Below, piece after piece: positions 1-18,519 of a stretch of DNA of 20,000 nt (the first letter of the stretch is position 1; every line of letters starts with the position of its first letter). The notes under the pieces were generated by a model, which did no database searches, was not told the origin of the DNA, and was given only the letters and a program-made list of their open reading frames with translations. A program made the position numbers and the translations under genes. Origin of the DNA: Catajapyx aquilonaris (lineage: Eukaryota); contig JYFJ02000499.1 in the NCBI GenBank assembly GCA_000934665.2, positions 106,850 through 126,849 on the forward strand, given 5' to 3'.

Positions 1-346
1 ATTTGCTGTGTTAGATGTTGCCATGTTTCAATGTGAATTTTCAGGGGGATTCAAGGGAATGTGAGGGACTCCAAGTGTGAGGAACATAATAATATTTAAT
101 TACATACACATATAATTATGACAAACTGAAATGTTTAGCTGTGAATGCTAAGTCATAATGTGTCACAACCATTTTATTCTGTAAAAATTATGTTTCATCT
201 GCAGCACCTGCACTATGAAAACACTATATTGAAGAAAGTACGCCTTAACATATAACCTTCGCTAGAGGTCGTACCGATGCTGCTTGTCACATGCTTGACA
301 CGTGAAAACACAATGGTGAATTGATCTGTAATTTTCCCCCCCACAG

Positions 347-391
347 GCGCAGGAGCCGCTGACAAGTCCAGGAACAAACGACTACGTATAA
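347..391 (+). CDS. Possible terminal coding exon of an upstream gene (AQEPLTSPGTNDYV* if phase 0)
   Basis: Strong acceptor attttcccccccacAG ends 346, followed by a GC-richer short reading frame and then long AT-rich UTR-like sequence; phase cannot be determined from this window. Confidence 0.35.
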   Translation, partial: AQEPLTSPGTNDYV

Positions 392-3300
392 CTAGGTGGC
401 CCAGGTAGCTGTATGAAGCGTGAATGATCACAAACTCAGCGTGTGAGCTCGAATCCAAGTGTGTGAGTGTGAGTGATAGCCTGGGTGACGATGACAGCTG
501 ACTTTGTTGGACTTGGTCCTCCTGTTCAAGAGGAGGGTTCTCCTAGAAGAAGAAAAAAAGCATTTTTGAGGGACGTGGCAGAGCGTGTGCGAACCAGGTT
601 GAGAAGAACGGGAGACAACAGAATAATATAGTTATTGGCGAGGCAAGCGAGCCAAAGGCTTCTTTGTTGTCTCTGCACACCAACACAAAAAAATGTATAG
701 TTGTAGGCTACTTGTCCAAAGTGATGTTTTGTACAAGTCGTGTTATTATTATTAATATTATTATAATTTTTTGTCAAAGGGCCTCCCTGCAGATAGGGAA
801 AACCTTGTTGTGATGATTCTACTGCGTTTTTTTTTCGAGAGTTGCGAGACGACTCGATGATAAAAAAATACGTCTTGAAGCAAAGCATTTTTTTGATGAA
901 AAACAGGACGCCAATCGTATCCCTCCAAAGTGTACTGCGCAGTTATTTTGTGTGTGCGGTGTTTGAACACATCGTACCCAAATGTAATGCAGCTTCCTGC
1001 TTCTGTAGGTTGGGACATATCACCAAGTCAGCAGCAAAATCGGGAGTGGTGTTTTTAAGTCAATGCAACAAAAAAATATATATATTAAAGGTTTGCTCCA
1101 TAGTTGGAAAAATTCCAGTTAGTATAGTCCAACAGCATGTGTGCCAAGGTTTTTTAATTAAATATTTCCTCACGATGTGAACAGGCGCGTCTGACTTAGG
1201 CTAGGATGACATTTCCCTGTAAGCCATTCACACATTGTATGATATCCCAAGAGATGTTTTTTGCTATAGTTAAGTAGAAGCAGCATGGATCTGAATTGCT
1301 CAAGTGTAGATGTTTAAAAGAAAACCACCCCTAACAACAACTTAAAAAGCAAAAAAAAAAATATATCCCTAATCCATTGTAAATACATTACCAGAGTTAT
1401 TTTTTAGTAATCATCCCCTTTTTCACACACTTGGCCATAAGTTATTGCTTGTCAAAGGAGCTTCACATCACCTTCATTTTGCTATCAGCTGCTGTCAAAA
1501 TCATTGTTTTTTTTTACAACTAATTTTTCTCGTGAATGGCTACTTGCGAGGTGCACCATTTTCAGTTACTCATAGTGCATTTCTTTTATCCGCTCAGTTG
1601 CGCCAATAATTATTTTCAAGGACGAGGTGCATCAAGGTGTCTCTCAGATGCTTGAAATATAACATTATTCAACTATCTTTCATACCCTTGGGCTTTTTGA
1701 AAAATAAAGTACGTACATAATATATGAATAGATAAATATATCTTATCTACCTGTCTTTAATACAATTTTTAAAGGGTTTAACGCAAGGGGAGTTCGCTGG
1801 AAAGTGGTAGCACGAAAATAAACAAAAAAAAAAGATTATTTACAATCTAGCAGTATTAGCTGACTTTAGAGGCTTGCGATAATTTTTGCTGAGCCTCATT
1901 GTACTGATGGGTGAACAAACAAAAAATAGCTGTCACTATAATTGTTCAAATGGATGAGGTAGGGGAGAAAAATCATTGAAGCCGGTCATAGAAGAAACTA
2001 ACGAACATGAGGAAACTAATGAGGGAAAGACAATGAAAGCTACTGTGATGAGCCAGTCTGGTGTGTGTGCAATTTGTAATAATTTTAATTTTGTGTCCTT
2101 TTTGTGGAGAGAGGGAGTCGAACCACATTACAAAAGAATTGAGTTTTCTTCTTCTTGGTTTAAACTTTTTGTCAAGTGCCAACTAATAATAACCTGAGTG
2201 TGACCACTTTTATGTGCAAAGTACACATTTGAAAAAGTTTTCTGGACGAGAGATCATCCTATTAACTCTTCTTTGGAAGAGAACATGTGCCATAAGTCAA
2301 ATCTGCTCTCTCCAGCTTTACGCAGCGATTTTCTTCGGATTTATTTCTTTGTAATGTGGTTTTTATTACAAGTGTGTTCAATTTTCTAGGTGAAAAAAGT
2401 CATGACAAGTCTACTCTGTAAGGGATGGAGATAATACAGTACCCGAGATACAGGAACATTTTATTAAGTGGATCGTTCGTAATAAAGTGCCCTTTGTCGA
2501 AAAAAGGTTAACGTAACCATATGTGCGGAGAATCCCAGCATTGCCTACATTAGTGCAATTCAGGTAGACTTGTCATGAACACGGCAAGCAAAACTACAAA
2601 AAAAAAAAATTTAACCGCATGTCATTCTAGAAAGTAGGCAGAATGTCACACAAAATGTCATACTTTTTCTACCAGGAATCAAACACACAATTATAATGTT
2701 CTCAGTCACATTCCAATGATAGGTGACAATTTTAATTTTTTTTTTGTCGTACAGAAAATTGTATAGAGAATACACTGTACGTGAATGGAATCTAAAAGTC
2801 AACGTGGGCGAATCCACCTGTTGACTTCGTGTATATACGAGTCTGTGTTTATATTGCTTCCAAAAAAAAACAAAAATAGCTCGTGTTTCCGGTGTAGTAG
2901 ATTGCCACGCAACTGACATTTAGTAGTCAGGTAGGGGACTCCTTTATTTACAATTTTTTTAGTGTTTTTTGAGAAACAAGAGTCGTTATGTCAGTGGTCG
3001 TATTTTGAAGTCTCATTGGCAGGCCCATATGGAGTGAAATTCAACAAGCCCTAATGACAAATGAGCTTGAAACTAAAGAAAACAACTGAGTTCCTAATTT
3101 TCGAATCTTGCATTTGTTCCGATACTTTTTGAGTTCACTTTCAATATATCTGCCATGTTGTTATTGTACAATGGTTGTCAATAAATATTATAAAGAAACT
3201 TGTGCTGTTGCATGTGAATAACCAACGAGTTTTCAGCCTTTGCCTTGGAGGACAAGCCTGCAACCTCTCAAGCACACCATTGACGTCAGCTCCTTTTTGA

Positions 3301-4582
3301 CCTTATTATGGATTCTTTAGTCGGATTTCAGCATTGATTTTCGGCATGGAATTTTCTGGAACTTCAGGCATTACGCAAGCAGCTCTCTCTTGATCTCCAG
3401 TGTCAGAGGAAATTTTAGACTATAACCGAGTTGAAGCTGAAAAGTTTTTTTTTATTGTTATTTTTAGGTGCTCCTTTCATCATTTTCCCATCAAGTCGAC
3501 TTATTGCAAATGCTGAGAAGGCCTAGTTTATTGAGATGGCATTATCCACATCCTTGATGGTGGTATTGTAAATCCCAGACATCTTCGACAAATAGGTGCA
3601 GCCACACTATGACCCAGGTTATCGCAGAAGAGATGATGTGAAAAGTAATTAAGCCTGTCTCTGACTCAGGCTGTACTTTTGTCACCCCAAACAATCAGCC
3701 AAATGATGATTACTGATTGCATGGTTCTACATGGCCAACTGGAATAGCGATGGTAAATTGGTAATGCAGCAAAATTCATTGCTGCTTGTATTGTAGTTTG
3801 TAGCAATACATTTTCACATGTTTCTGACTTATTTGCTGCTGTCAAAAGTTTGCTTCTTGCCTGCGCAAAGTAGCCCACAGGCCAGGGAACAAAGTTAATT
3901 GGCCAAAAGTTCTTCATGCTGTTGGCCTTTTATCACACTACATGTACCAACATTGGTAGAACGTTGGTTGGTTTATCTTGGAAGTAGGCCTACGTCAGCT
4001 GGTAATATACATATAACTTATATTAATGTTTTGCGGTTTACAGCGTATAGAACACACTGGAGTACATATGAGAATAGGTGCGTAAAACCAGCTTATTTGG
4101 TAGGTCTAATAAATTATGCTAAATTTAACTATCGTGCACCCCATATTGAAAATGCCGAGTAATAAAAAATCACTATTGACATCATATTCAATTTGCAGTT
4201 ATTTGTTGCTGTGGTCAGTACCCTACTTTTGCTCTACATGTCTGCTACATGTAAAAAATAAAACACTGATGCAGAATTTTATGAGCACTGTCAGAGATTA
4301 TTATCAAAAATCATTGCATAGTAGGCCTATAAATAATGCAGTAGCATGTCAACATGCATCATGTAAGCAACTGCATGTGCATGTTTTCCTCAATTTCATG
4401 CGCCGGATTAATTTTGACCTTTGACCCATCTGCCAACTGCGATAATTCAAATCTTTGGCTATACGCGATGCATATTTTCAGTACCTCATCCTGTACCCAC
4501 ATTTTAGTCTTTTAAACTTCCGATATTATGCCTACATTCTACCCCTTGGCATTTCCCGATAATAAAAAAAGCAATATTGTCG

Positions 4583-5641
4583 TTAAGAGTTAGGATTATT
4601 TTGCTGTGACTCGGTGAGCACAACTCTCCTTGAAGTCTGCACAACTTTGTTATTGTTATCTCTGCGGAAATACCTGGGAGCGAGAAACAGCGCTATAGTT
4701 TGGCCCAACAATGATGTGTTCATTATCCGGTTGTGTGGGTCCAATGAGCTCCCCCCCCCCCTCTGATTACTCTCGTTACGTCTTGTTTACTTGCTTCGGG
4801 CGAGTTGCTATTCGAAGCATCTTCCTCTCATCGTCAACAAAGCCTATAGCTGACAAAATACCCAGCACGTCACTCATGCTCCGTGCTGTTGACGCAGTTT
4901 TTTTTTGTGTATGTGTATGTGTGTGCTCACTTTTTAAATGACGTTCGTTAACTTTGCTCATGCCCCAACATAATATTCGGATTAAGTTTAATAACAATAC
5001 ACTTTTATCAGCATCAACATCAGCAGGTTGTGATTCATTATACCATACTACATCGACTCTGCTGGTGTCCCTGGAGAGGAAATGACATGACAGTGCTCTA
5101 TTATAATTATAGAACTGATTAGATTCGTAAGATATACTCTAGTACCGTACTGTCAATTTGTTGTCACACCTCGAATTCCTTTGCCCCACGTGATCGTAGT
5201 ACGTTTCAGTGAATAGCAAATGCTTATCTATTCCTAGTAAGAATCGCGCGATAATATCCCTATTGCAATCTTTTTTTTTCCCTGAAGCGCAGATCGGCCT
5301 TTGATCCGTGACTAACATGTAAACATCACATGCTGGGGGTTAACTGGGAAATAAATGCACCAATTCATTACTTAGCAAAGCTTTAAGCTGCTTAGTAAAA
5401 AAAAAGAAGCAGTTGGCTGCTTAGTAATATAAGCAACTTACTGTTAGTGCGAAACTATGTTTTGGACATGCCTCCTTCATATGTATGTTGTTATGGTCCG
5501 GTTGTATGCAAATTAGTGTAATTAACCTGCAATTGATTCAATTTGGTATTTTTCCCGGGCTGGGCCGGCAAATTGGGTGTGGTTAGTTGGCAGTAGCGCC
5601 GCATCGCTCCCACCGTGTCGCCACCATCGCCCACACAACAT
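4583..5641 (-). CDS. Putative 5-exon gene, protein of unknown function (about 192 aa): complement(join(4583-4673,4780-4849,4931-5070,5170-5332,5527-5641))
   Basis: Manual splice model with four GT-AG introns (194, 99, 81, 106 nt), phases 1,2,1,2 all matching, total 579 nt with no internal stop. Acceptors include catttcctctccAG, ttttgtcAG and tttctcgctcccAG; donors include A|GTGAGC. No homology recognised; exon 1 is the weakest part. Confidence 0.45.
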
Positions 5642-5861
5642 CGCCCACACTTCTTTAAAAAAACATCGATATTCCTACCCATAAGAAGACAACAGGAGAT
5701 CGATCCTTTCATGGTTCCAAAATATCGATATTTTTTGATATGGTGGGGAGAGGAGCAGCTTTTTTTCTTTTTTTTTTCCTTCCCTCGTCCCTCTTCCTCC
5801 CCACTTCCCTCCTTCCCATCATCGAATCCATTCCATTGTGATTTTGTGTAAATGGCCGACC
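5544..5861. promoter_or_regulatory. Probable housekeeping-type, possibly bidirectional promoter with DRE cluster
   Basis: Perfect DRE TATCGATA at 5723-5730 within the palindrome AAAATATCGATATTTT (5719-5734); CATCGATA at 5664-5671; GATCGATC at 5698-5705; TGGTATTTTT (Ohler motif 6-like) at 5544-5553; YY1/Pho-like AAATGGCC near 5850; locally CpG-rich. Confidence 0.6.
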
Positions 5862-6011
5862 TGTGCTGAAGAAAAGGGGGAAATATTCGCCTCTCTCGAC
5901 CCCCCACCCAAGAGACGGAGCCGGGATAGGAGGAGAGGAAACGCTGGAGCAGGACCAGGGGCAAACTAGGGGCAGGAGACATGGAGAGAAGCAGGAACTG
6001 GACGTAGCAGG
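5842..6011 (+). other. Candidate first (leader) exon of RAD54L2; 5' boundary approximate
   Basis: Purine/GC-rich segment right after the DRE cluster, ending at CAGG|GTGAGG (GT at 6012); the exon at 8516 has an acceptor and needs an upstream partner. Confidence 0.4.
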
Positions 6012-8254
6012 GTGAGGCTCACAACTAGTTGGTCCCCCCCAGTGGAATGCTGGGGATGGGCAGGAAAAACCATTGTTGGGGCAGCGCAGCAGGACAATGA
6101 GCAAATGCGCTGTCGCTAGTCGCAGTTGACATGTTCGGGTTAAGGTTCGCTGTCACGGTTTTGCTTCACAGGTCTTGTCAGGCGATAACAAGTCGAGGGT
6201 TGACACAAGAGTGACTTGCAAAGGGAAAGTAGTTGACCACTCATTGCAAGAAAGGGTGGGAGGAATAGGCTCTGCTTCGTGCTGTTCATTACCAAGGTTG
6301 CAGCATAATTATAGAACAAGATTTGTGAGAGGAAATCTCACATAAAAGTTTTTTTTCCGTAATGATGAGTGTGCAGAACTACGCAGTAGCAGACACAAGA
6401 TGCAAGGGTGAGTCTGGTCCACAAGTTCAATTTAATGTACGGAACGATCTGTTTCCATGGACATTCTCACAGAACAATATGAGTAAACGGTGCCAACAAA
6501 AAAAAGCAACAATGGAAGAAGCGATGTCGTCAGATCGTTCTGTCGTTTTCCGTACATTAGTGGCTGTCATTCCCATGGCTGTATATGTCATGCCTTGTTT
6601 GCTGCATAGGGTAAACTAAGACTAGCACTATTGCTTTGGTGTAGGCTGTAGGGCAATTTTATATTAAACACGCCTTTGTCAATAATAGCGAGACATGAAA
6701 AATTTCCGTTCTGGAATCTGATGCAAATTATTCCAACCTCGGACGTGTTTCTGCTGAATCCAGCGTCCATTCTGCGTAGGTTTTGTGAAATCGGCAATGA
6801 CAATACAACAATAGCTCATGATCCCCAATTTACGCTGGAAGTGTCATGGTTTTGATTTTCTGGCCGACTCTCAACCACTCTCAAGAGCGTGGCAACTAGT
6901 ACCTTCTAGTTATATCCGTAATTATTTTTTCTGAGTTTACGCAACATATAGCCACTGCGCCAGTGAGGCAATAAAAGATGTAATCAGGAGTTGCATATTG
7001 CATAGTTCTGCTGATCCACAAGAGGGTTAAAACGCAAGCTGCAGTGGTGCAATTGGTCATGAAAACAGTTTGAGAACTTGTTTGAAAAGTCACATGTGAT
7101 GAAAGCTCACTCTGGGGGAGAAACCTGATGGGTGGCCTTGAATATTCTGAAAATTGACTCACAAAATAAGGGCACTCTGACAATGGTGTGATGAATTGGG
7201 GCACAATTGAAGCCAGGCATTGTGGGAAGCTTGAAAGAAAATAATTTTAAAAATCTCTCTCATGTTATATCAAGGCCACCTGTTTACTTTCGGTGCAAAC
7301 AGGTGAACACTGACACTCTTACGGCATATCCACTTGGATGCTGGAAGTGAAGAAGACCTAGCCGTCACAAAATTGTCTATTGATTTGGCAAAATAATGGG
7401 CCGTTTTTATGATTCCGGTTGTATCTAGTAATAGAATTACTTCGTTGACGTTATTACTTTATTTTCTCACGGAGCTTTCAACTTGAAGTGGACCCAAATG
7501 AAGTCTCAGTTGGGTTTGCAATGTGAGTGCTTTTTCCTGGCTGAAAGTGTCAGCTTCGTAGTACTCACAATGGTTACTGTACAATTTAACACAAGCTTAA
7601 ACCACGGAATATATGAGCCCAACACATGAACAATTTACCCTACACATTGGGTAGGGCACTAGGCTGCTAGAAAAGACGTCTTATATCATGAAGACACCTT
7701 CAATGGTTGTTTTGAAAATATTTTAAAACATGTTTTATCTTGACCAACATTCGCAAATGAAGCATCCATATTGCAGCCTAAAGTGTTAATTGTTTTTAAA
7801 AACAGATTTGCATGACAATACAGACAGTTCTTTTCTGAAAACAAGTGGACCATACATTGGCATTTTAAAAAATATATATTTTTTTGTAGAAACGCTTGTT
7901 TAAAGCCCATGAAGAGGAAGTAGTTGGTTACGCCCAAAATAATTATAGGAGTGGTGATCATGAATCTGTCGGCTACAACTGTTTAAAATTATTCATTTGA
8001 ACTACCTTGAGGCTTATGCTTTACTTTGCATAGTCTCTGGTTGCTATTGAGTTGCCAATGTTGGAATCAGATAATTTTGTGTAGCTGTAGTGTTCACCTT
8101 GGTGTGAGCGGAAAGTATGTATTGATGCCTGGAGTGACCTTGACAGAATAATAAATTGTAATTGTATTGATTGGGCTATGCTTACAATATAGCAACTGGT
8201 TTATTACAGCAATATTATGAGCTGAGTCTTTTGGAACCTGCTGGGTTTGAGTTA

Positions 8255-8430
8255 CAGTGAAACCTCAATTCATGGTTTTTGTTAGGACCCCATGGAAAAA
8301 ACTAATCAATTAAGGAAAAATGATAATTGAGGGACACTATAGTAAGTAGAATTTGTTCTGGGACCTGAGGAATTGAACAATTGATCTAGGAAAACTATAC
8401 ATATAGGGATGATAGATTCAGGTTTCACTG
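8255..8430. mobile_element. 176-bp non-autonomous Tc1/mariner-superfamily (pogo/Tigger-like) MITE in the intron upstream of the first RAD54L2 coding exon
   Basis: Perfect 11-bp terminal inverted repeats CAGTGAAACCT (8255-8265) and AGGTTTCACTG (8420-8430), extending imperfectly; TA on the left, TG on the right (probable mutated TA target duplication). Confidence 0.75.
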
Positions 8431-8515
8431 TGATATTTTCATTTCACTATTTGATGATATCAAATTGTAATTATTATTTTATGATGTTTACATTTGTTCA
8501 CTTTTTGCATTTCAG

Positions 8516-8753
8516 GCCAAATACTGCCGAAATGGAGGCAAAGGTGGAATCAATCCTGGACCGTGCAGAGGTCCCGGAGTCAGTCTTGCAAGATCTACCC
8601 GAACTGACTTCACAGGATGTCAACGCAGAGATGGTGGATGATGGGGACTTGTCCGACTTTGACATGGATTTTAAACAAGAGGACACTGATGCAGACAAGA
8701 AGGGAAGCGAGGAAAGTGAAGTGATCTCATCTGAGGGGGAGGAAGAGGAGGAA

Positions 8754-9887: not shown

Positions 9888-12800
9888 GTGAGTAGCTTTG
9901 TCAGGGGATAGCTGTTTACACTTGAACACATTTACTGTCAGGCAAGTAAGCATTTTGTCTCCATTTAGATTGGTGGGATCCGTTTCCTGTATGACAACGT
10001 TGTGGAATCCTTGGACCGGTTTAATGTGTCAAGTGGATTTGGCTGCATCTTGGCTCACTCTATGGGGCTCGGGAAGACCCTGCAGGTGGTAGCCTTGTGC
10101 GAGACCTTCCTGACTTACACCCAGGCCCGCACGGTCCTGTGCATTGTCCCTATCAACACCCTGCAGAACTGGGTTGCCGAGTTCAATCACTGGCTACCAC
10201 GTGATCCTGCGACCAGTCCTTTGTCCCAGTATGGAACAGTGAAGCCCAGGCAGTTCGCCCTCCATGTAATCAACGACTCTCACAAGTCACTAGGTGCAAG
10301 AGCCAAGGTTATCAAGGATTGGTACAAGGAAGGTGGTGTTCTGCTTATTGGGTACGAGTTGTATCGGCAGCTCTGCCTGAAGAGGCCACAGCCAAAGAAG
10401 AAAAAAGGTGGGTACATTTTTTGGCTGGTGCCATTGTTGACTGAATTATAATTGTTTGTTCCAAATAGGACGCCGTTGCAAGGGTGGCCTGGCAAGCGAG
10501 ATCATTGATTTGGAGGAAGAGGACCGCAATAAATCCCTGTTTGAAGAGACACACCATGCTCTTGTTAGGCCTGGTCCAGACCTGGTGATTTGTGATGAGG
10601 GCCACCGCATCAAAAATTCGCATGCCTCAATCTCGCAGGCCCTGAAGAATGTGAGGACGAAGCGGAGAGTGGTCCTGACTGGGTACCCCCTTCAGAACAA
10701 CCTGCTCGAGTACTGGTGCATGGTTGACTTTGTGAGGCCCAACTATTTGGGGACCAAGACTGAGTTCTGCAACATGTTTGAACGGCCAATCCAAAATGGG
10801 CAGTGTGTGGACAGCACACCAAAGGACATTAAGCTCATGCGCTACAGAGCGCATGTGCTGCACTCGCTCCTTGAGGGATTTGTGCAGAGGTAATATTATT
10901 TGTCTACTCACGTATGATGATGAAATGCGGATCTGATCAGAAAGGCATAAGTGGCTATTGGAGATGTTATTTGCGGGTTGTGTGTGGCATTAAGACAGAT
11001 GAGATTGGGAATGAGGATATGTTGCCGAGGTGTACTGTTAGTAGACTTAAATGTGTCTAGTCTAGAGCCTCCGTATGCATCAGTGTTGCTTGTAAATAGT
11101 GGTCCATAAGCAGGGTCCTTGTGCTGTGCTAATAACCCTGGCATTTCAAATAGCCTACATTGTTAGTAATTAAAGGCTAGCATTAATATTTCTCTCTTTA
11201 TTTCAGGCGCAGCCACAGTGTGCTTCAGGAATCCCTCCCGAAGAAGGAGGAATATGTGATCCTGGTTCGCATGACACCATTTCAGCGTAGCTTGTACCGT
11301 TCCTTTATGGCGGAGATTGGGCAGACGCAGAGTGTAGCCAATCCTCTAAAAGCCTTTGCTGTATGCTGCAAGATTTGGAACCATCCTGATGTTCTCTACC
11401 ATTTTTTGAAGAAGAGGGACAAGAAGGATGAATTTGATCTTGACATTGGAGAGGACGTCACAGGGGAAGCTAAGAAGAAGGGTGGAACAGGAGCAGGGCC
11501 AGGGAGGCCGCCCAAAGTGGTACCAGGAATGGTGGCAAGTTCAGGGCAGCCGGGTGTGGGATTACCAATGTTGGCACCTCTGTCACTGTCATCGTCGTCA
11601 TCCTCCTCATCCAACTCGAACTCGACAACTCCAGTGGCCACACCCAGTCCAGCCATCACAGCAGAGCCAGTCAGCCAGGAGATGGCTGTGGTGCCCACCA
11701 TCAGGGAAAAGGATGATGCGCTTAACTACGACTGGGTAAGTAATACGCATTATTTGATCAGTATCCTGGATTCTCATCATGGTAGTAAAAAATGTGTATG
11801 GCTGCTGATGCGAGTTCTTTTTGCATAAGGCTCCACTTCGGAGGAACCTGCATGCACCCATTTCCTTCCCATTCCTTGAGGTGACTCCTGAAGCCCTGTT
11901 GCTGCCATTCTACTTCTGAACACCTTTGCATGTAAGGGAAGTGAAACCCATCCACACCAGATCTTTGATTCAGCTGAGCCTATTCAATTTGGAATTTTTG
12001 TTTGGTTCAGGCAGAGGATTTTCTGTGCATTTCTGTTGCACAACCTGTTCAATTAGGAGAGTGTTTTGGCAGGTAAGCTGTAGGATGCCTATTTTCCTTA
12101 GTCCGCTAATATTTTTGGTGCAAATGGTGCTTGATGGTGCCTACAGAGCACGTGAGAAATAGGATTGCATGATAATGTATTTTTTCACCTAGGTGCACTA
12201 GTGACAAATCCCTCTTCATCCTGCCATATCCCTTGTAATTATTATGACCTTCCCACAGGCTACCTAGCAGTAGGTACACAATATTAAGAATATTCAATGT
12301 CTTTTTCTTATGTCCATAGGCAACGGCCCTGTTCAAAGGCTACACTCCTGGCCTGGTGGAAAACTCAGCCAAGATGGAGATATTTATGCACATCCTGGAC
12401 GAGTCCGTTCTATCTGGGGACAGGCTGCTTGTCTTCAGCCAGTCACTCTTCACTCTCAACCTGCTTGAAGACTTTCTCCAGAGGTCAAACTTGCCAGGAA
12501 GGAAGGAGAAGTGGGCTCAGAACTTCAATTATTTTAGTAAGATTACATTTACAACTATGTATTGCCGCTGCCTTGAGATTAATAAGTGTGTCATACGTAG
12601 TCTACTTTATCAATTAAATATTTATGAACCTGGTGGCACAGTGGGATAGTGGCTACAGCCTTCTGAGGCCCTGAGTTCAATCCCAGAACTACTTTTGCTT
12701 GTGAAAAACTTTTGATTATTAGTATTGACATGTATTTGAAAGGGGATTCTAAAGTGAAGGTCCCACATGGCTAATTGAACAATTTTTTTTCCGCATCCAG

Positions 12801-15218
12801 GACTGGATGGAAGCACGACAGCCCTTGAGCGTGAGAAGTTGATCTGCGAGTTCAACTGCAACCCCAATATCCACCTGTTCCTGATCTCCACCCGTGCTGG
12901 AAGCCTTGGAATTAATCTTGTTGGAGCAAATCGTGTGATTGTGTTTGATGCCAGTTGGAATCCATGCCATGACACACAGGCTGTCTGCCGTGTGTATCGC
13001 TATGGACAGACTAAACCTTGCTATGTGTACCGCCTGGTGAGTGACAACTCCCTGGAGAAGAAGATCTATGATCGGCAGATCAACAAGCAGGGAATGGCCG
13101 ACAGGGTTGTAGATGAGCTTAACCCAGATGCTCACCTGAGCACCAAGGATGTTAGCACCTTGATCTGCTTCAATGAGGAGGACCCAGAGGCAAGTGATTC
13201 TACTTCATTCGGCAGTATTTCTCAAGCTTTTCTATTGTGGCCGATTGTGGGGACAGAAGATCAGGTGTCCTGTTTTGATCACCAATCATAATGTCATAAG
13301 CTAGTACTTGTATGTGGAATATGGATTTTTGATGAGATTGTGATCAGAGTTCTCTTGTGGCCCTGGTTTGACCATTTTGTTGTGATTTTTTTTTTCTTCG
13401 AGCCGCTACTTTGTATAGTATGCATACAGTGCTGTGTGGTGTGCCTTTGGGCATAGGAATTTGAATATTCTAAATTTAAATTTTATTGCAGGCGAGGGAT
13501 CTGTCCGAAAGCAAGGGAAGATATGGTGATCCAATTCTCCAGACTGTGATGGAGAGGCTTGGAAATACAATGACCAGAGAGCCATTTGAACACGAGTCCC
13601 TGCTAATTGATCGCAAAGAAAAGAAGCTGTCTGAAGCAGAGAAGAGGCTAGCCAAGAGGAGTTACGAGCTGGAGAAGCAGGCCAGCATCAACTACTCACG
13701 TAACACGTACTCGGCATACTACCCAAAAGTAGGGGTCACCTCTCAGGCACAGGTAAACATATCACAGGCATGCGAGTGAAATTCACAGAGTCAAATTTTG
13801 GGGTTTTTGAATACGTTGCTTATTGATTTTGTGTTTCACAGGTCCTTCCTGCAAACCTCCTTGCCAACCTCCGTGCTGGAAAAGGCCGTGGGATGATCAA
13901 CCCTGCAGCCATGATGATGAAGCCAGTGGCAAGTGTCCGTCCAATGCAGTCGGAGTATGCCTCCCGGTTTGGTGCAGCTGCTGCCATGCATCACCGTGCA
14001 GCAGGTGGTGTGTCACCTCATCACCAGGCAGCTGCAGCTGCCAAGCAGGGGATCACCACCCACCAGCTAGTAATCCCAAAGGACGTTGTGATTCCAACAA
14101 GCACGAGAGATGGCACCAGTATCACTCTAAAAGCTGGTCAGAAGATATTGGTGATCAAGACACCGAAGGGAGTTTACTTGAGGTTACAAGACGGCAGGTT
14201 GATTGCTGTGAGGATCCCTACTGGTGGAAATGTCGGAATGGATTCTGCAGCGGTTCAGAAGACAAAGGCAGCTCCTGCAGTGGTACCAGCTCTACCTGCA
14301 CAACACCACCACACACCTCTACACCAACCATCTCAACACCATCCAACACAACAACCGCAAACACAGCACCATGCAACACAACATCACCCGACGCAACATC
14401 ATTCACCACAGCATCACCCAACGCAACATCATCCAACACCACCGCAGCCTGTGGTTAAGCCCCCAGAGCCTGCTAAACCAGATCCTCCTGTGATTGCGCT
14501 AGACACTGAAGAGGAGAAAAAGAAAAATACAAACTTTTACTATCCGACCAGCACCTCAGCACCTGTTTCGACTACATCCAGTACATCAACAACAACACCA
14601 CCATCAGTGTCTGAGACCTGGAACCAGTACTGGAATCCAGCTAACACACCCGCTACACCCAATCCTCCACCTTCTAACCCAACCAGCAACCCAGTGAACC
14701 CAGCACCTGAAGAGCCAGCAACTGTCCCAGTGCCAGAAAATCCTACCCCACAGCCAGATCCGTACCCGGACCACTGGCCAGAGCAGCCACCCCCACCGTA
14801 TTTCTACCAGCCGCCTAATCCAGGCTACTCTGGGTTTTATCCACCTCCACCAAACCCATACCACCCACCTCCCCCACCTCCGCCTCCACCAAACTCATAC
14901 CCATACCCGTATTATCCGGGCAACTATGCCACGCCAACTCCGCAAAACCCGTACAACCCGTACCAGTCGACTGGGTTCTACCCGTACACCCCAGGTTATT
15001 CGGCATCCACTTCAAACCGTGGGGCTGCACCAGAGAATCCTTACTTCGGGCAATCAGGGTACCCCCCTCCAGTGCCACCACCCCCAGTACCGCACCCTCC
15101 TCCACCCCCACCCACGCAACCAGCGGGTTATCCAGCGAATTACCCCCACTTTGCCGGGTCTGGATTTTATGGGGGAGGGATAGTGCAGGAAGTACCAGAA
15201 GTGAGCAAATCGACCTGA
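8532..15218 (+). CDS. RAD54L2: Helicase ARIP4 / RAD54-like 2 (SNF2 family, ATRX-like group), spliced CDS join(8532-9887,9969-10407,10469-10889,11207-11735,12320-12536,12801-13189,13492-13752,13842-15218), 4989 nt, about 1662 aa
   Basis: SNF2 motifs in order: [23 protein letters not shown] (I), VPINTLQNW (Ia), DEGH (II), TGYPLQNNL (III), KIWNHPD, LVFSQS (IV), [19 protein letters not shown] (V), [11 protein letters not shown] (VI). The pre-helicase segment [22 protein letters not shown] and post-helicase [32 protein letters not shown] are as I recall for ARIP4 rather than ATRX, and no ADD zinc finger is present. All 7 introns are phase-compatible. The start ATG at 8532 is the least certain part. 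Confidence 0.93.
8832..8921 (+). repeat. Coding 18-bp tandem repeat x5 ([30 protein letters not shown])
   Basis: Five in-frame units sharing a gaagga core, visible in both DNA and translation. Confidence 0.85.
9969..10407 (+). CDS. RAD54L2: RAD54L2 coding exon 2 (helicase motifs I, Ia)
   Basis: Acceptor ctccatttAG ends 9968; begins [10 protein letters not shown]; donor G|GTGGGT at 10408 (phase 1). Confidence 0.93.
10469..10889 (+). CDS. RAD54L2: RAD54L2 coding exon 3 (motif II DEGH, motif III)
   Basis: Acceptor ttccaaatAG ends 10468; donor AG|GTAATA at 10890 (phase 2). Confidence 0.93.
11207..11735 (+). CDS. RAD54L2: RAD54L2 coding exon 4 (inter-lobe region with G/P/S-rich insert)
   Basis: Acceptor ctctttatttcAG ends 11206; restores FVQRRSHSVL; donor TGG|GTAAGT at 11736 (phase 0). 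Confidence 0.9.
12320..12536 (+). CDS. RAD54L2: RAD54L2 coding exon 5 (motif IV)
   Basis: Acceptor tgtccatAG ends 12319; [19 protein letters not shown]...LVFSQS; donor A|GTAAGA at 12537 (phase 1). Confidence 0.92.
12628..12690 (+). mobile_element. tRNA-derived SINE-like head or tRNA relic in a RAD54L2 intron
   Basis: Pol III A-box-like TGGCACAGTGG (12634-12644) and B-box-like GAGTTCAATCC (12673-12683) with T-arm-like pairing CTGAG/CCCAG; no complete cloverleaf. Confidence 0.55.
12801..13189 (+). CDS. RAD54L2: RAD54L2 coding exon 6 (helicase C-terminal domain, motifs V-VI)
   Basis: Acceptor ttttccgcatccAG ends 12800; restores YFRLDGST; ends at GAG|GCAAGT, a GC donor at 13190 (phase 0). Confidence 0.9.
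13492..13752 (+). CDS. RAD54L2: RAD54L2 coding exon 7
   Basis: Acceptor ttttattgcAG ends 13491; contains [17 protein letters not shown]; donor CAG|GTAAAC at 13753 (phase 0). Confidence 0.9.
13842..15218 (+). CDS. RAD54L2: RAD54L2 terminal coding exon (small globular-looking module plus H/Q- and P/Y-rich tail)
   Basis: Acceptor gtgtttcacAG ends 13841; in frame with ORF 13893-15218; TGA at 15216-15218. Confidence 0.85.
   Translation, partial: VLPANLLANLRAGKGRGMINPAAMMMKPVASVRPMQSEYASRFGAAAAMHHRAAGGVSPHHQAAAAAKQGITTHQLVIPKDVVIPTSTRDGTSITLKAGQKILVIKTPKGVYLRLQDGRLIAVRIPTGGNVGMDSAAVQKTKAAPAVVPALPAQHHHTPLHQPSQHHPTQQPQTQHHATQHHPTQHHSPQHHPTQHHPTPPQPVVKPPEPAKPDPPVIALDTEEEKKKNTNFYYPTSTSAPVSTTSSTSTTTPPSVSETWNQYWNPANTPATPNPPPSNPTSNPVNPAPEEPATVPVPENPTPQPDPYPDHWPEQPPPPYFYQPPNPGYSGFYPPPPNPYHPPPPPPPPPNSYPYPYYPGNYATPTPQNPYNPYQSTGFYPYTPGYSASTSNRGAAPENPYFGQSGYPPPVPPPPVPHPPPPPPTQPAGYPANYPHFAGSGFYGGGIVQEVPEVSKST
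14299..14445 (+). repeat. Coding degenerate 15-bp repeat encoding QHHPT-like pentapeptides
   Basis: Units such as caacatcatccaaca and cagcatcacccaacg; peptides [15 protein letters not shown]. Confidence 0.8.
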
Positions 15219-16663: not shown

Positions 16664-16818
16664 GTAACAGTGATGTTTCCTCATTGACCGACATATCGAT
16701 GACGTCGTTACAGACTCATTAGAGCTTCACCCTTTGATGACAGGGTATCTTCTGTGTGAGAACTGAAATACTCATTTGCCTTCCAACCCCAATAATGTTT
16801 TCCCCTCCCTCCCTAGCC

Positions 16819-18318
16819 ATGCCAAGAGGGAGACAGCCTCAAAGCCTGAGACGCTTGAGTGTGAGCTGCCTTGCCAGCATAGTCCTACAATGGTGCAAGA
16901 GGAGCGAGTGCCACAATGATGATGGGAGTAGACAGTTTGTCCAAGACATACCCGAGATGTTTGCAAATGAATTTGTATTGAAGATTCTCAAGTTGTACTC
17001 AAAGGTGAGAGACAACTACAGGATTACTGAAGCATTTCATCCTAAATGCACCAAGATAGTCGAAGAGAATGGAATGACAATTCTGACACTCCCACCACAT
17101 TGTTACGTCCAACTGTTTATCAACCTTCATGTTATGACTGAGCTGCAAGTTTTAGATAGTTGTTGTCATGTGTGGGACGGACGCAGTTACGGTGTATTAA
17201 GTTCTGTTCCATTTCCCAACCTGAGCAAACTCCGTAAAGTTGTAATAGCAGGGCTTCTGCACTCACGGCACCTTGAGCAGATGGTTGAAAATTGCCCACT
17301 CCTGGAGGATATTATATTTTTGTCCTCATGTCATTATTTGATCATCAAATTCTGTTAGGCTGCAGGAACCTTAAAAGCTTTCATATGGTTAACATAAATC
17401 CACGTGTTGCGATATTCCTGCTTGAGAACCTGCCCAGCCTGGAAGATACGGATATTGGTGACGTGACCCAATTGTTGCCACTCTGCACACGGGAATATCG
17501 CTTGAAAAGATTGGGTTCAGGCATGAGGAAAATCAAAGCCACTACCTTACCAAAGCTCTTGACCCATTTTCCTCACCTTGAAGAGCTTGAGTTGAACATG
17601 GATAGTGACACAGATCCAAGCCCCATTAACAATCTCCTAGGCCTTAAACACTTAACAATAAGAGAAGGAGCAGTGACCCGTCTTGTCTGTCTGTCTGAGA
17701 GACGCATGCATGGGTCGTCTTTCCAAGTTGGAGTTGCGCAATGTCACCAACCCTACTTTCTTGTTCTCACCAGATATGAAGCTTCAATGCACACATCTGA
17801 AATGCCTGACCCTTACAGGATGCACTGGAATAAACTTGGCTGTCATTGGTGACGTAATTCCAGACATACAATCTCTTTGCTTATCTGGCACCTTTATTCC
17901 TCTTCCTCCTGACCAAATGAAGACAAGTTCTGCTTTTCAAGCACTTGAACAATTGAAGATGTCTGGGGAGGTGCCAATGGTTCATGCTAAATATCTGCTG
18001 TCAGCATCCAGCAAGAACTTAAAGAGTCTCTCTGTGTATAACACTCCAAACAATTTTGTTGCAAATGAACTGCTTTCTGGAGCTAGGCTGAAGGAGTTGC
18101 GTGGAATCTCCATAACAGACGTCAGCATGACAAAAGATATTATTCCAAGGATTTTGGCTGTATGTGGAGATTACTTGGCAGCAGCATTTGTGAGTGGGAA
18201 AGATTTGGAAATGTCACAGGATGAAGTCAATGCGTTGAAAAATCAGTTGCAACCATATGACATGATTTTTCATGTACAAAATCCGTTAACTAAATTTAGA
18301 TACCGATATGAAGGGTAA
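16819..18318 (+). pseudogene. Frameshifted leucine-rich-repeat protein gene with N-terminal BC-box/Cul2-box-like motif (about 498 aa if repaired); pseudogene or assembly error
   Basis: ATG at 16819 follows an acceptor; MPRGRQPQSLRRLSVSCL fits the BC-box pattern. RNI/F-box-type LRR units (CPLLEDI, CRNLKSF, LPSLEDT, FPHLEELEL, CTHLKCLTL, FQALEQLKM) run across three overlapping ORFs. Frame changes near 17315-17345 and at the (TGTC)3 run 17684-17695, with no convincing intron at either. Confidence 0.75.
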
Positions 18319-18431: not shown

Positions 18432-18519
18432 TTTATTCCTCCTGACCAAATGAAGACAAGTTCTGCCAATAGTTCTGCTTTTCAAGGACTTGAACTATTG
18501 GATATGTCTGGAGATGTAC
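18432..18519 (+). repeat. Diverged partial duplicate of LRR gene segment 17893-17974
   Basis: cctcctgaccaaatgaagacaagttctgc is identical in both copies and similarity continues through ttttcaag-acttgaac-attg---atgtctgg; the copy has a 6-nt deletion and a 12-nt insertion. Confidence 0.92.

Follow-up and report, generated by a model that had tools for sequence, protein, structure and literature searches.

The 20,000-nt stretch of Catajapyx aquilonaris DNA analysed here (contig JYFJ02000499.1, positions 106,850 to 126,849; hereafter the window), part of a 286-Mb genome, probably contains a spliced gene that diverges from a cluster of DRE sites. The candidate consists of five minus-strand exons and four GT-AG introns, and its joined exons of 579 nt encode 192 aa plus a stop codon. 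On recomputation, this model agreed exactly with that of the initial annotation, which had joined minus-strand frames through four GT-AG introns into a 192-aa product and had given its junctions as the last and first exon bases. The splice statistics support the proposal of a real gene, but the exact five-exon form is less certain, with roughly even chances of being correct. Both judgements are rough estimates that combine a prior of 10-30% that a compact gene adjoins such a promoter, a splice likelihood ratio near 17, and a modest coding term.

The reading that we favour, and consider probable, is a real single-copy, spliced coding gene at a DRE promoter shared with RAD54L2. It would be transcribed leftward from this DRE-type promoter, probably common to both genes, and the transcript would be spliced and translated into a small basic protein. 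The gene itself is likely old and fast-evolving, with relatives that have dropped below detection, rather than newborn. If real, it was missed by ORF tracks and standard coding models and detected solely by its splice grammar and its position beside a promoter. Orphans of this size are frequent at divergent promoters, and the candidate is an ordinary member of this common class of gene, so that on its own it changes little. The finding would be weightier if the product proved to fold like a DNA-repair factor presumed lost, or if comparison with relatives revealed that a gene with four introns had recently arisen de novo.

Gene model

All predicted exons and introns lie on the minus strand. Exon 1 (5527..5641, 115 nt), which begins with the ATG at 5641, is the least certain coding exon. 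Intron 1 (5333..5526, 194 nt) faces stronger rival acceptors before 5387 and 5343, which truncate the frame and yield products of 39 or 48 aa; the frame from ATG 5641 survives only with the acceptors before 5332 and 5281. Exon 2 (5170..5332, 163 nt) contains another in-frame ATG at 5318 and is followed by intron 2 (5071..5169, 99 nt), which has the top score among the 499 candidate introns of the region. Exon 3 (4931..5070, 140 nt) is AT-rich and contains a predicted long helix, and the adjoining intron 3 (4850..4930, 81 nt) is in frame and stop-free and includes a CA/A run. Exon 4 (4780..4849, 70 nt) precedes intron 4 (4674..4779, 106 nt), which carries a G11 run and has a weak donor, with another donor at 4790; if this intron is left unspliced, the frame ends at a stop at 4778-4776. 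The coding part of exon 5, including the stop, occupies 4583..4673 (91 nt). The first AATAAA past the stop, a possible poly(A) signal, lies at 3527..3532 on the same strand and would imply a 3' UTR of about 1 kb.

The intron sizes had been described as within the RAD54L2 range, which is borne out (RAD54L2 introns of 61-584 nt), and they are also typical for the genome, where the median is 136 among 539 predicted introns. Simple repeats had been assigned to the introns; this holds for the G11 and CA/A runs, and also for a T run, the exception being an A9 run within exon 2 (5279-5271). The phases do match, yet the lengths of introns 2 and 3 are each divisible by 3, and their agreement is no separate evidence because exons 2-4 already share one genomic frame (5339-4776). 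The sole in-frame stop between 5339 and 4779 is a TAG inside intron 2. A single broken ORF spanning 5339-4776 was rejected, as neither intron stretch has coding bias and no other intron of the region scores better than intron 2. A minimal model of about 120 aa, which starts at ATG 5318, takes in exons 2-4, and stops at 4776, is a live alternative. The core of the gene (exons 2-4 with introns 2-3) is robust; the weaker parts are exon 1 together with intron 1, and the donor of intron 4. Both by DNA and by protein the locus is single-copy in the genome, and no parent copy was found in either search.

Genomic setting

RAD54L2 (ARIP4) is a plus-strand gene, for which our own annotation gives eight coding exons between 8532 and 15218 that encode 1662 aa. 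In coding-region intron 6 (13190-13491, plus strand) it has an apparent GC donor, with which the frame is intact, and another of its introns harbors a 62-nt pseudo-exon (12011-12072, plus strand) with a good-looking acceptor and donor, whose inclusion shifts the frame and which may be a poison exon or a product of chance.

On the other side of the candidate, the 3' end of a lipoprotein-receptor gene (LpR/VLDLR-like) is found at 347-391 on the plus strand; as this gene ends at about 390, the candidate is arranged tail-to-tail with it. With plus-strand AATAAA sites found as far as 4561, the 3' UTR of the receptor gene could overlap that of the candidate. The receptor gene (locus L013, 4509-9630) has about 90 kb of intron or intergenic DNA upstream of its 3' end, and around L013 7410-7920 it includes an optional exon that is long and rich in Ser/Thr. 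Antisense to its last exon, a 109-codon open frame at 213-542 (minus strand) follows a strong-looking acceptor and is probably a shadow.

Beyond RAD54L2, an LRR-like gene (16694-18318, plus strand) with weak matches to PF24758 has a DRE-like site of its own at 16694 and is split over three overlapping frames. It is broken near 17330-17365 and, at a TCTG repeat, near 17660-17700; both breaks are shorter than typical introns, and the gene may therefore be frameshifted or a pseudogene. Directly behind its stop, a degenerate second copy of part of its last ORF is present at 17899-17970 and 18434-18515 (plus strand).

Splice signals

Splice sites were scored with a splice and coding model that was self-trained on 594 kb of this genome (60 loci, the candidate region excluded), with RAD54L2 and the receptor gene as seeds. 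Training yielded 539 introns with canonical consensus, which are predictions and not verified introns. Donors 1-4 of the candidate correspond to the 98th, 99th, 98th, and 75th percentiles of decoy GT sites, and acceptors 1-4 to the 91st, 99.7th, 92nd, and 98th percentiles of decoy AG sites. Seven of the eight sites are above the 90th percentile of the decoys (n = 7462 and 6204, respectively), and seven of eight fall within the 26th-86th percentile of the 539 predicted true sites.

For the whole chain, the highest-scoring complete ORF that contains four or more introns within 1450 nt was sought, with scores computed from splice signals and lengths alone. The best score at the locus was -22.8, compared with -23.4 for the exact model of the initial annotation and -42.4 for the opposite strand, and the best-scoring parse keeps ATG 5641 and seven of the eight earlier splice sites. 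This splice-only score was reached by 0/300 dinucleotide shuffles and by 0/130 upstream windows (94 kb of presumed intron or intergenic DNA), by 4/126 windows without a predicted gene, and by 15/256 antisense windows, giving a pooled null of 19/512 non-coding or antisense windows; among predicted-gene windows with four or more introns, 17/26 reached it. The score of the exact five-exon model was likewise reached by none of the 130 upstream windows, and the result is unchanged when the demand is lowered to two or three introns. When 29 non-coding windows were scanned in sliding fashion on both strands, the locus also gave the highest peak, and a parser blind to the DRE chooses ATG 5641 within 5.2 kb. 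The splice signals exceed chance.

These comparisons bear on the idea that splice-like sites of ordinary intergenic DNA happen to line up at the candidate and that the DRE serves RAD54L2 only. Given the pooled null of 19/512, a chain of this quality could arise by chance in a window of this size if position is ignored; moreover, the ab initio parse leaves the gene out, and the model had been picked by eye for phase agreement. We nevertheless regard this explanation as unlikely, since the cleanest control and the shuffles gave no case, the two strands differ, and the start adjoins the only perfect DRE in 120 kb; some of the control windows that reach the score may themselves be missed genes. 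The pseudo-exon of RAD54L2 with its good-looking sites and the self-predicted training introns call for caution in the use of splice evidence.

A parse that ignores open reading frames recovers introns 2 and 3 and the acceptor of intron 4 but not intron 1, and it prefers the donor at 4790 over that at 4779. Its introns 2 and 3 leave 362 nt open, which occurred in 1/5000 shuffles, a figure flattered by the choice of the region for its open frames.

Coding signal

The codon bias of the candidate is only weakly above chance. For exons 2-5, the codon-position bias gave z = 2.1 (p = 0.025) and the Markov coding model z = 1.3 (p = 0.097), and in a set of 80 chance ORFs the former value ranks above the 90th but below the 97.5th percentile. 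Exon 1 (z = -0.7 and -1.1) has no coding bias, nor does exon 3 by itself; in the model frame, biases were found for exon 4 (z = 2.0 and 2.2) and exon 5 (z = 1.6 and 1.8). Conserved exons typically reach z = 4-6, and the LRR-like neighbor is similarly low (z = 1.9-2.7). Such a weak bias is compatible with a fast-evolving AT-rich gene without being proof of one. The score of the locus is matched by 28/130 upstream windows when the coding term has its full weight, and by 9/130 at a weight of 0.3; the windows that overtake the locus once the term is added are the GC-richer controls. A full parse of the whole window omits the candidate gene.

A splice signal far stronger than the coding signal could also be expected from a spliced non-coding divergent transcript, or from a decaying pseudogene, expressed from the same promoter. 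In line with this explanation, the long frame is lost with the stronger acceptors of intron 1, and several out-of-frame ATGs are present upstream of the candidate start. It is disfavored by the 362-nt core that remains open when introns 2 and 3 are placed without regard to frame, by the codon bias of exons 4 and 5 in the model frame, by the lack of any Rfam match within 400-8500 of the window, and by a genome in which no parent copy was detected. Accordingly weighted, a non-coding or decaying locus seems improbable to us, and a coding gene remains the preferred reading.

DRE cluster and probable shared promoter

The perfect DRE TATCGATA at 5723..5730 lies 82 nt upstream of the candidate ATG, and a motif scan identified two degenerate DRE-like ATCGAT sites at 5664-5671 and 5699-5704, placing the cluster 23-89 nt from this ATG. 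The perfect site is the only copy in the window and, with none in the 100 kb upstream, the single one in the 120 kb of contig examined; five were found in 594 kb elsewhere. DRE-like sites occur 50-500 nt before predicted gene starts in 3/11 inspected loci. On the plus strand, RAD54L2 would begin with a non-coding first exon at 5760..6011 (start approximate), with a donor at 6012 and an acceptor before 8516, ahead of the ATG at 8532. The resulting putative first intron of 2.5 kb has site scores of 5.85 and 7.23. With this predicted exon, which ends at 6011, and the first intron that follows it, the candidate and RAD54L2 would be arranged head-to-head. A shared DRE promoter had been part of the initial annotation: the DRE cluster is indeed present, but the sharing hangs on the 2.5-kb first intron inferred for RAD54L2. 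The two genes would probably share a DRE-type promoter.

In Drosophila, 32% of genes are reported to be divergently paired, with BEAF/DREF-type sites linked to such pairs (PMC4132727). The candidate and RAD54L2 resemble these pairs in their opposite orientation, in predicted starts well below 1 kb apart, and in the CGATA/DRE cluster between them. They differ in that both starts, including the first exon of RAD54L2, are predictions and DREF binding is putative. In the literature on RAD54L2 and head-to-head arrangements, we found no account of this gene pair.

Search for relatives

The queries in all remote searches were either single exons or frames with intron residues left in, which limited sensitivity. 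With exon 2, the one candidate among proteins of 94-2000 aa was not a relative (0/1), and the frame spanning exon 3, intron 3, and exon 4 had no usable match in the ESM Atlas (recognition 1523). The sole match of the read-through frame (P0124) among 1.84 billion representatives was rejected, as it was a tandem-repeat ORF aligned mainly to intron-3 residues. Searches of Pfam with exon pieces and the read-through frame gave only a sub-threshold RcpC match (E 0.016-0.051), PDB sequences gave no match at E 10, and none of 570 pattern matches in metagenome contigs was a relative. In viral contigs, exon 2 matched 0/9 loci and a second query 2/59, both on intron-3 CA-repeat residues only. A viral or transposon origin found no support, given the single copy, the lack of viral loci for exon 2, and the repeat-only nature of the other matches. 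A tblastn search of the model against fetched loci of the same genome, including the SAS-6, LIG4, and PAXX-like loci, had a best E of 0.47. The initial annotation had recognized no family, and no relative, paralogue, or family emerged from any of these searches.

The lineage itself is isolated in the databases. Named matches to the RAD54L2 helicase domain are all arthropods with 77-88% identity, and none is identical to it (120 listed of 1723). The C-terminal half shares 56-69% with its top 25 matches, insects and a crustacean alike, and 0 of 2306 candidates matched the last ORF of the LRR-like neighbor. With only distant matches for RAD54L2, the organism appears to be an arthropod that has no near relative visible in the database, and because the LRR-like neighbor is unmatched as well and the organism's own RAD54L2 protein is missing from the matches listed, the absence of relatives of the candidate says little. 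The initial annotation had called the gene possibly lineage-specific or fast-evolving; with no close relative in the databases, a lineage-specific gene is indistinguishable from one that is old but undetectable.

The orphan status would most likely reflect homology detection failure, to which PMC7660931 attributes many of the lineage-specific genes of insects and fungi. The candidate shares with the genes described there by Weisman, Murray and Eddy (2020) a short length, apparently fast evolution, the lack of a detectable homologue, and an isolated lineage. Their test, as outlined in that source, uses the scores of orthologues from related species, of which the candidate has none.

Alternatively, the locus may be a young protein gene, arisen de novo or truly lineage-restricted, that was born of divergent transcription at the RAD54L2 promoter. 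Such an origin fits the absence of relatives among 1.84 billion representatives (one spurious repeat match aside), the weak codon bias, the nearly open genomic frame of exons 2-4 as a ready-made substrate, and a CpG content that is not depleted (observed/expected 0.85). The CpG value is non-discriminating, however, as the first kb of predicted genes is as high in 4/13 cases. In addition, four introns with gene-like sites suggest age, the recognizable LRR-like neighbor is equally without matches, and detection failure accounts for many such genes in the insects and fungi covered by PMC7660931. A young gene is therefore a rather unlikely explanation, and we retain an old, fast-evolving gene as the preferred one.

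Predicted product and comparison with known systems

Depending on its ends, the product is 120-192 aa long; the long form has 22 kDa and a pI of 9.4. It has no signal or transmembrane segment and no hydrophobic 19-mer above 1.2, and is predicted to be a soluble basic protein whose front half is rich in strands and is followed by a single long helix and a polar tail. A single-sequence structure model of the intron-containing frame places strands in exon 2 and the long helix in exon 3 at a mean pLDDT of only 34; a Foldseek search with this model had no match at E 0.001, which is meaningless at such confidence. The layout of these elements and a few short motifs may resemble XLF and its relatives. 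PH-like, longin-like, and XRCC4-like folds all suggested themselves as likenesses, which shows how weak such resemblances are. If the locus is coding, the likeliest role, put forward tentatively, would be that of an adaptor or scaffold subunit without enzymatic activity, expressed together with proliferation and DNA-metabolism genes.

Profiles of the XLF, XRCC4, and PAXX families (PF09302, PF06632, PF15384) had no match at the locus in a search of low power, in which exons were separate or intron-interrupted and the controls were also without a match. The same applied to the REC114 profile PF15165 (PH-like fold), for which no control matched either. Elsewhere in the genome, a match to ligase IV (LIG4-type) is present, and SAS6 and a weak PAXX-like match are found on other contigs. 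A sub-threshold match of the PAXX profile is located at C1351:32894-33079 (minus strand, locus L078; E 0.037) and has one stop inside. The genome search with XRCC4 or XLF profiles gave no match. A genome with ligase IV but no XRCC4 or XLF match leaves room for a protein of this type, and the locus itself provides no support for it. XRCC4/XLF-type end-joining factors are described as unidentifiable in a mite (PMC13571142), and the architecture of the end-joining complex is treated in PMC8549938.

Provided that the gene is coding, a very divergent head-plus-helix protein of the XRCC4/XLF type is the leading named candidate, albeit a doubtful one, and we do not file the product under this family. 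The fuller proposal of a compact, extremely divergent XRCC4/XLF-type end-joining scaffold, acting as an undetected partner of ligase IV and co-regulated with RAD54L2 from one DRE promoter, is more speculative still. In this family, a helix-turn-helix separates strands 4 and 5 of the head; the candidate head seems too short for seven strands and the helix short for a coiled-coil stalk, and a C-terminal Ku-binding motif is not recognizable. Members of the XRCC4 superfamily (XRCC4, XLF, PAXX, SAS6, and CCDC61) are reported in PMC7267773 to have a head of seven strands, then a coiled coil, and a tail of low complexity, with less than 20% identity between them, and the predicted order of strands, short helix, strands, long helix, and low-complexity tail in the candidate is the same. 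Should the XRCC4/XLF-type reading be true, the "missing" end-joining factors of arthropods can hide as orphans.
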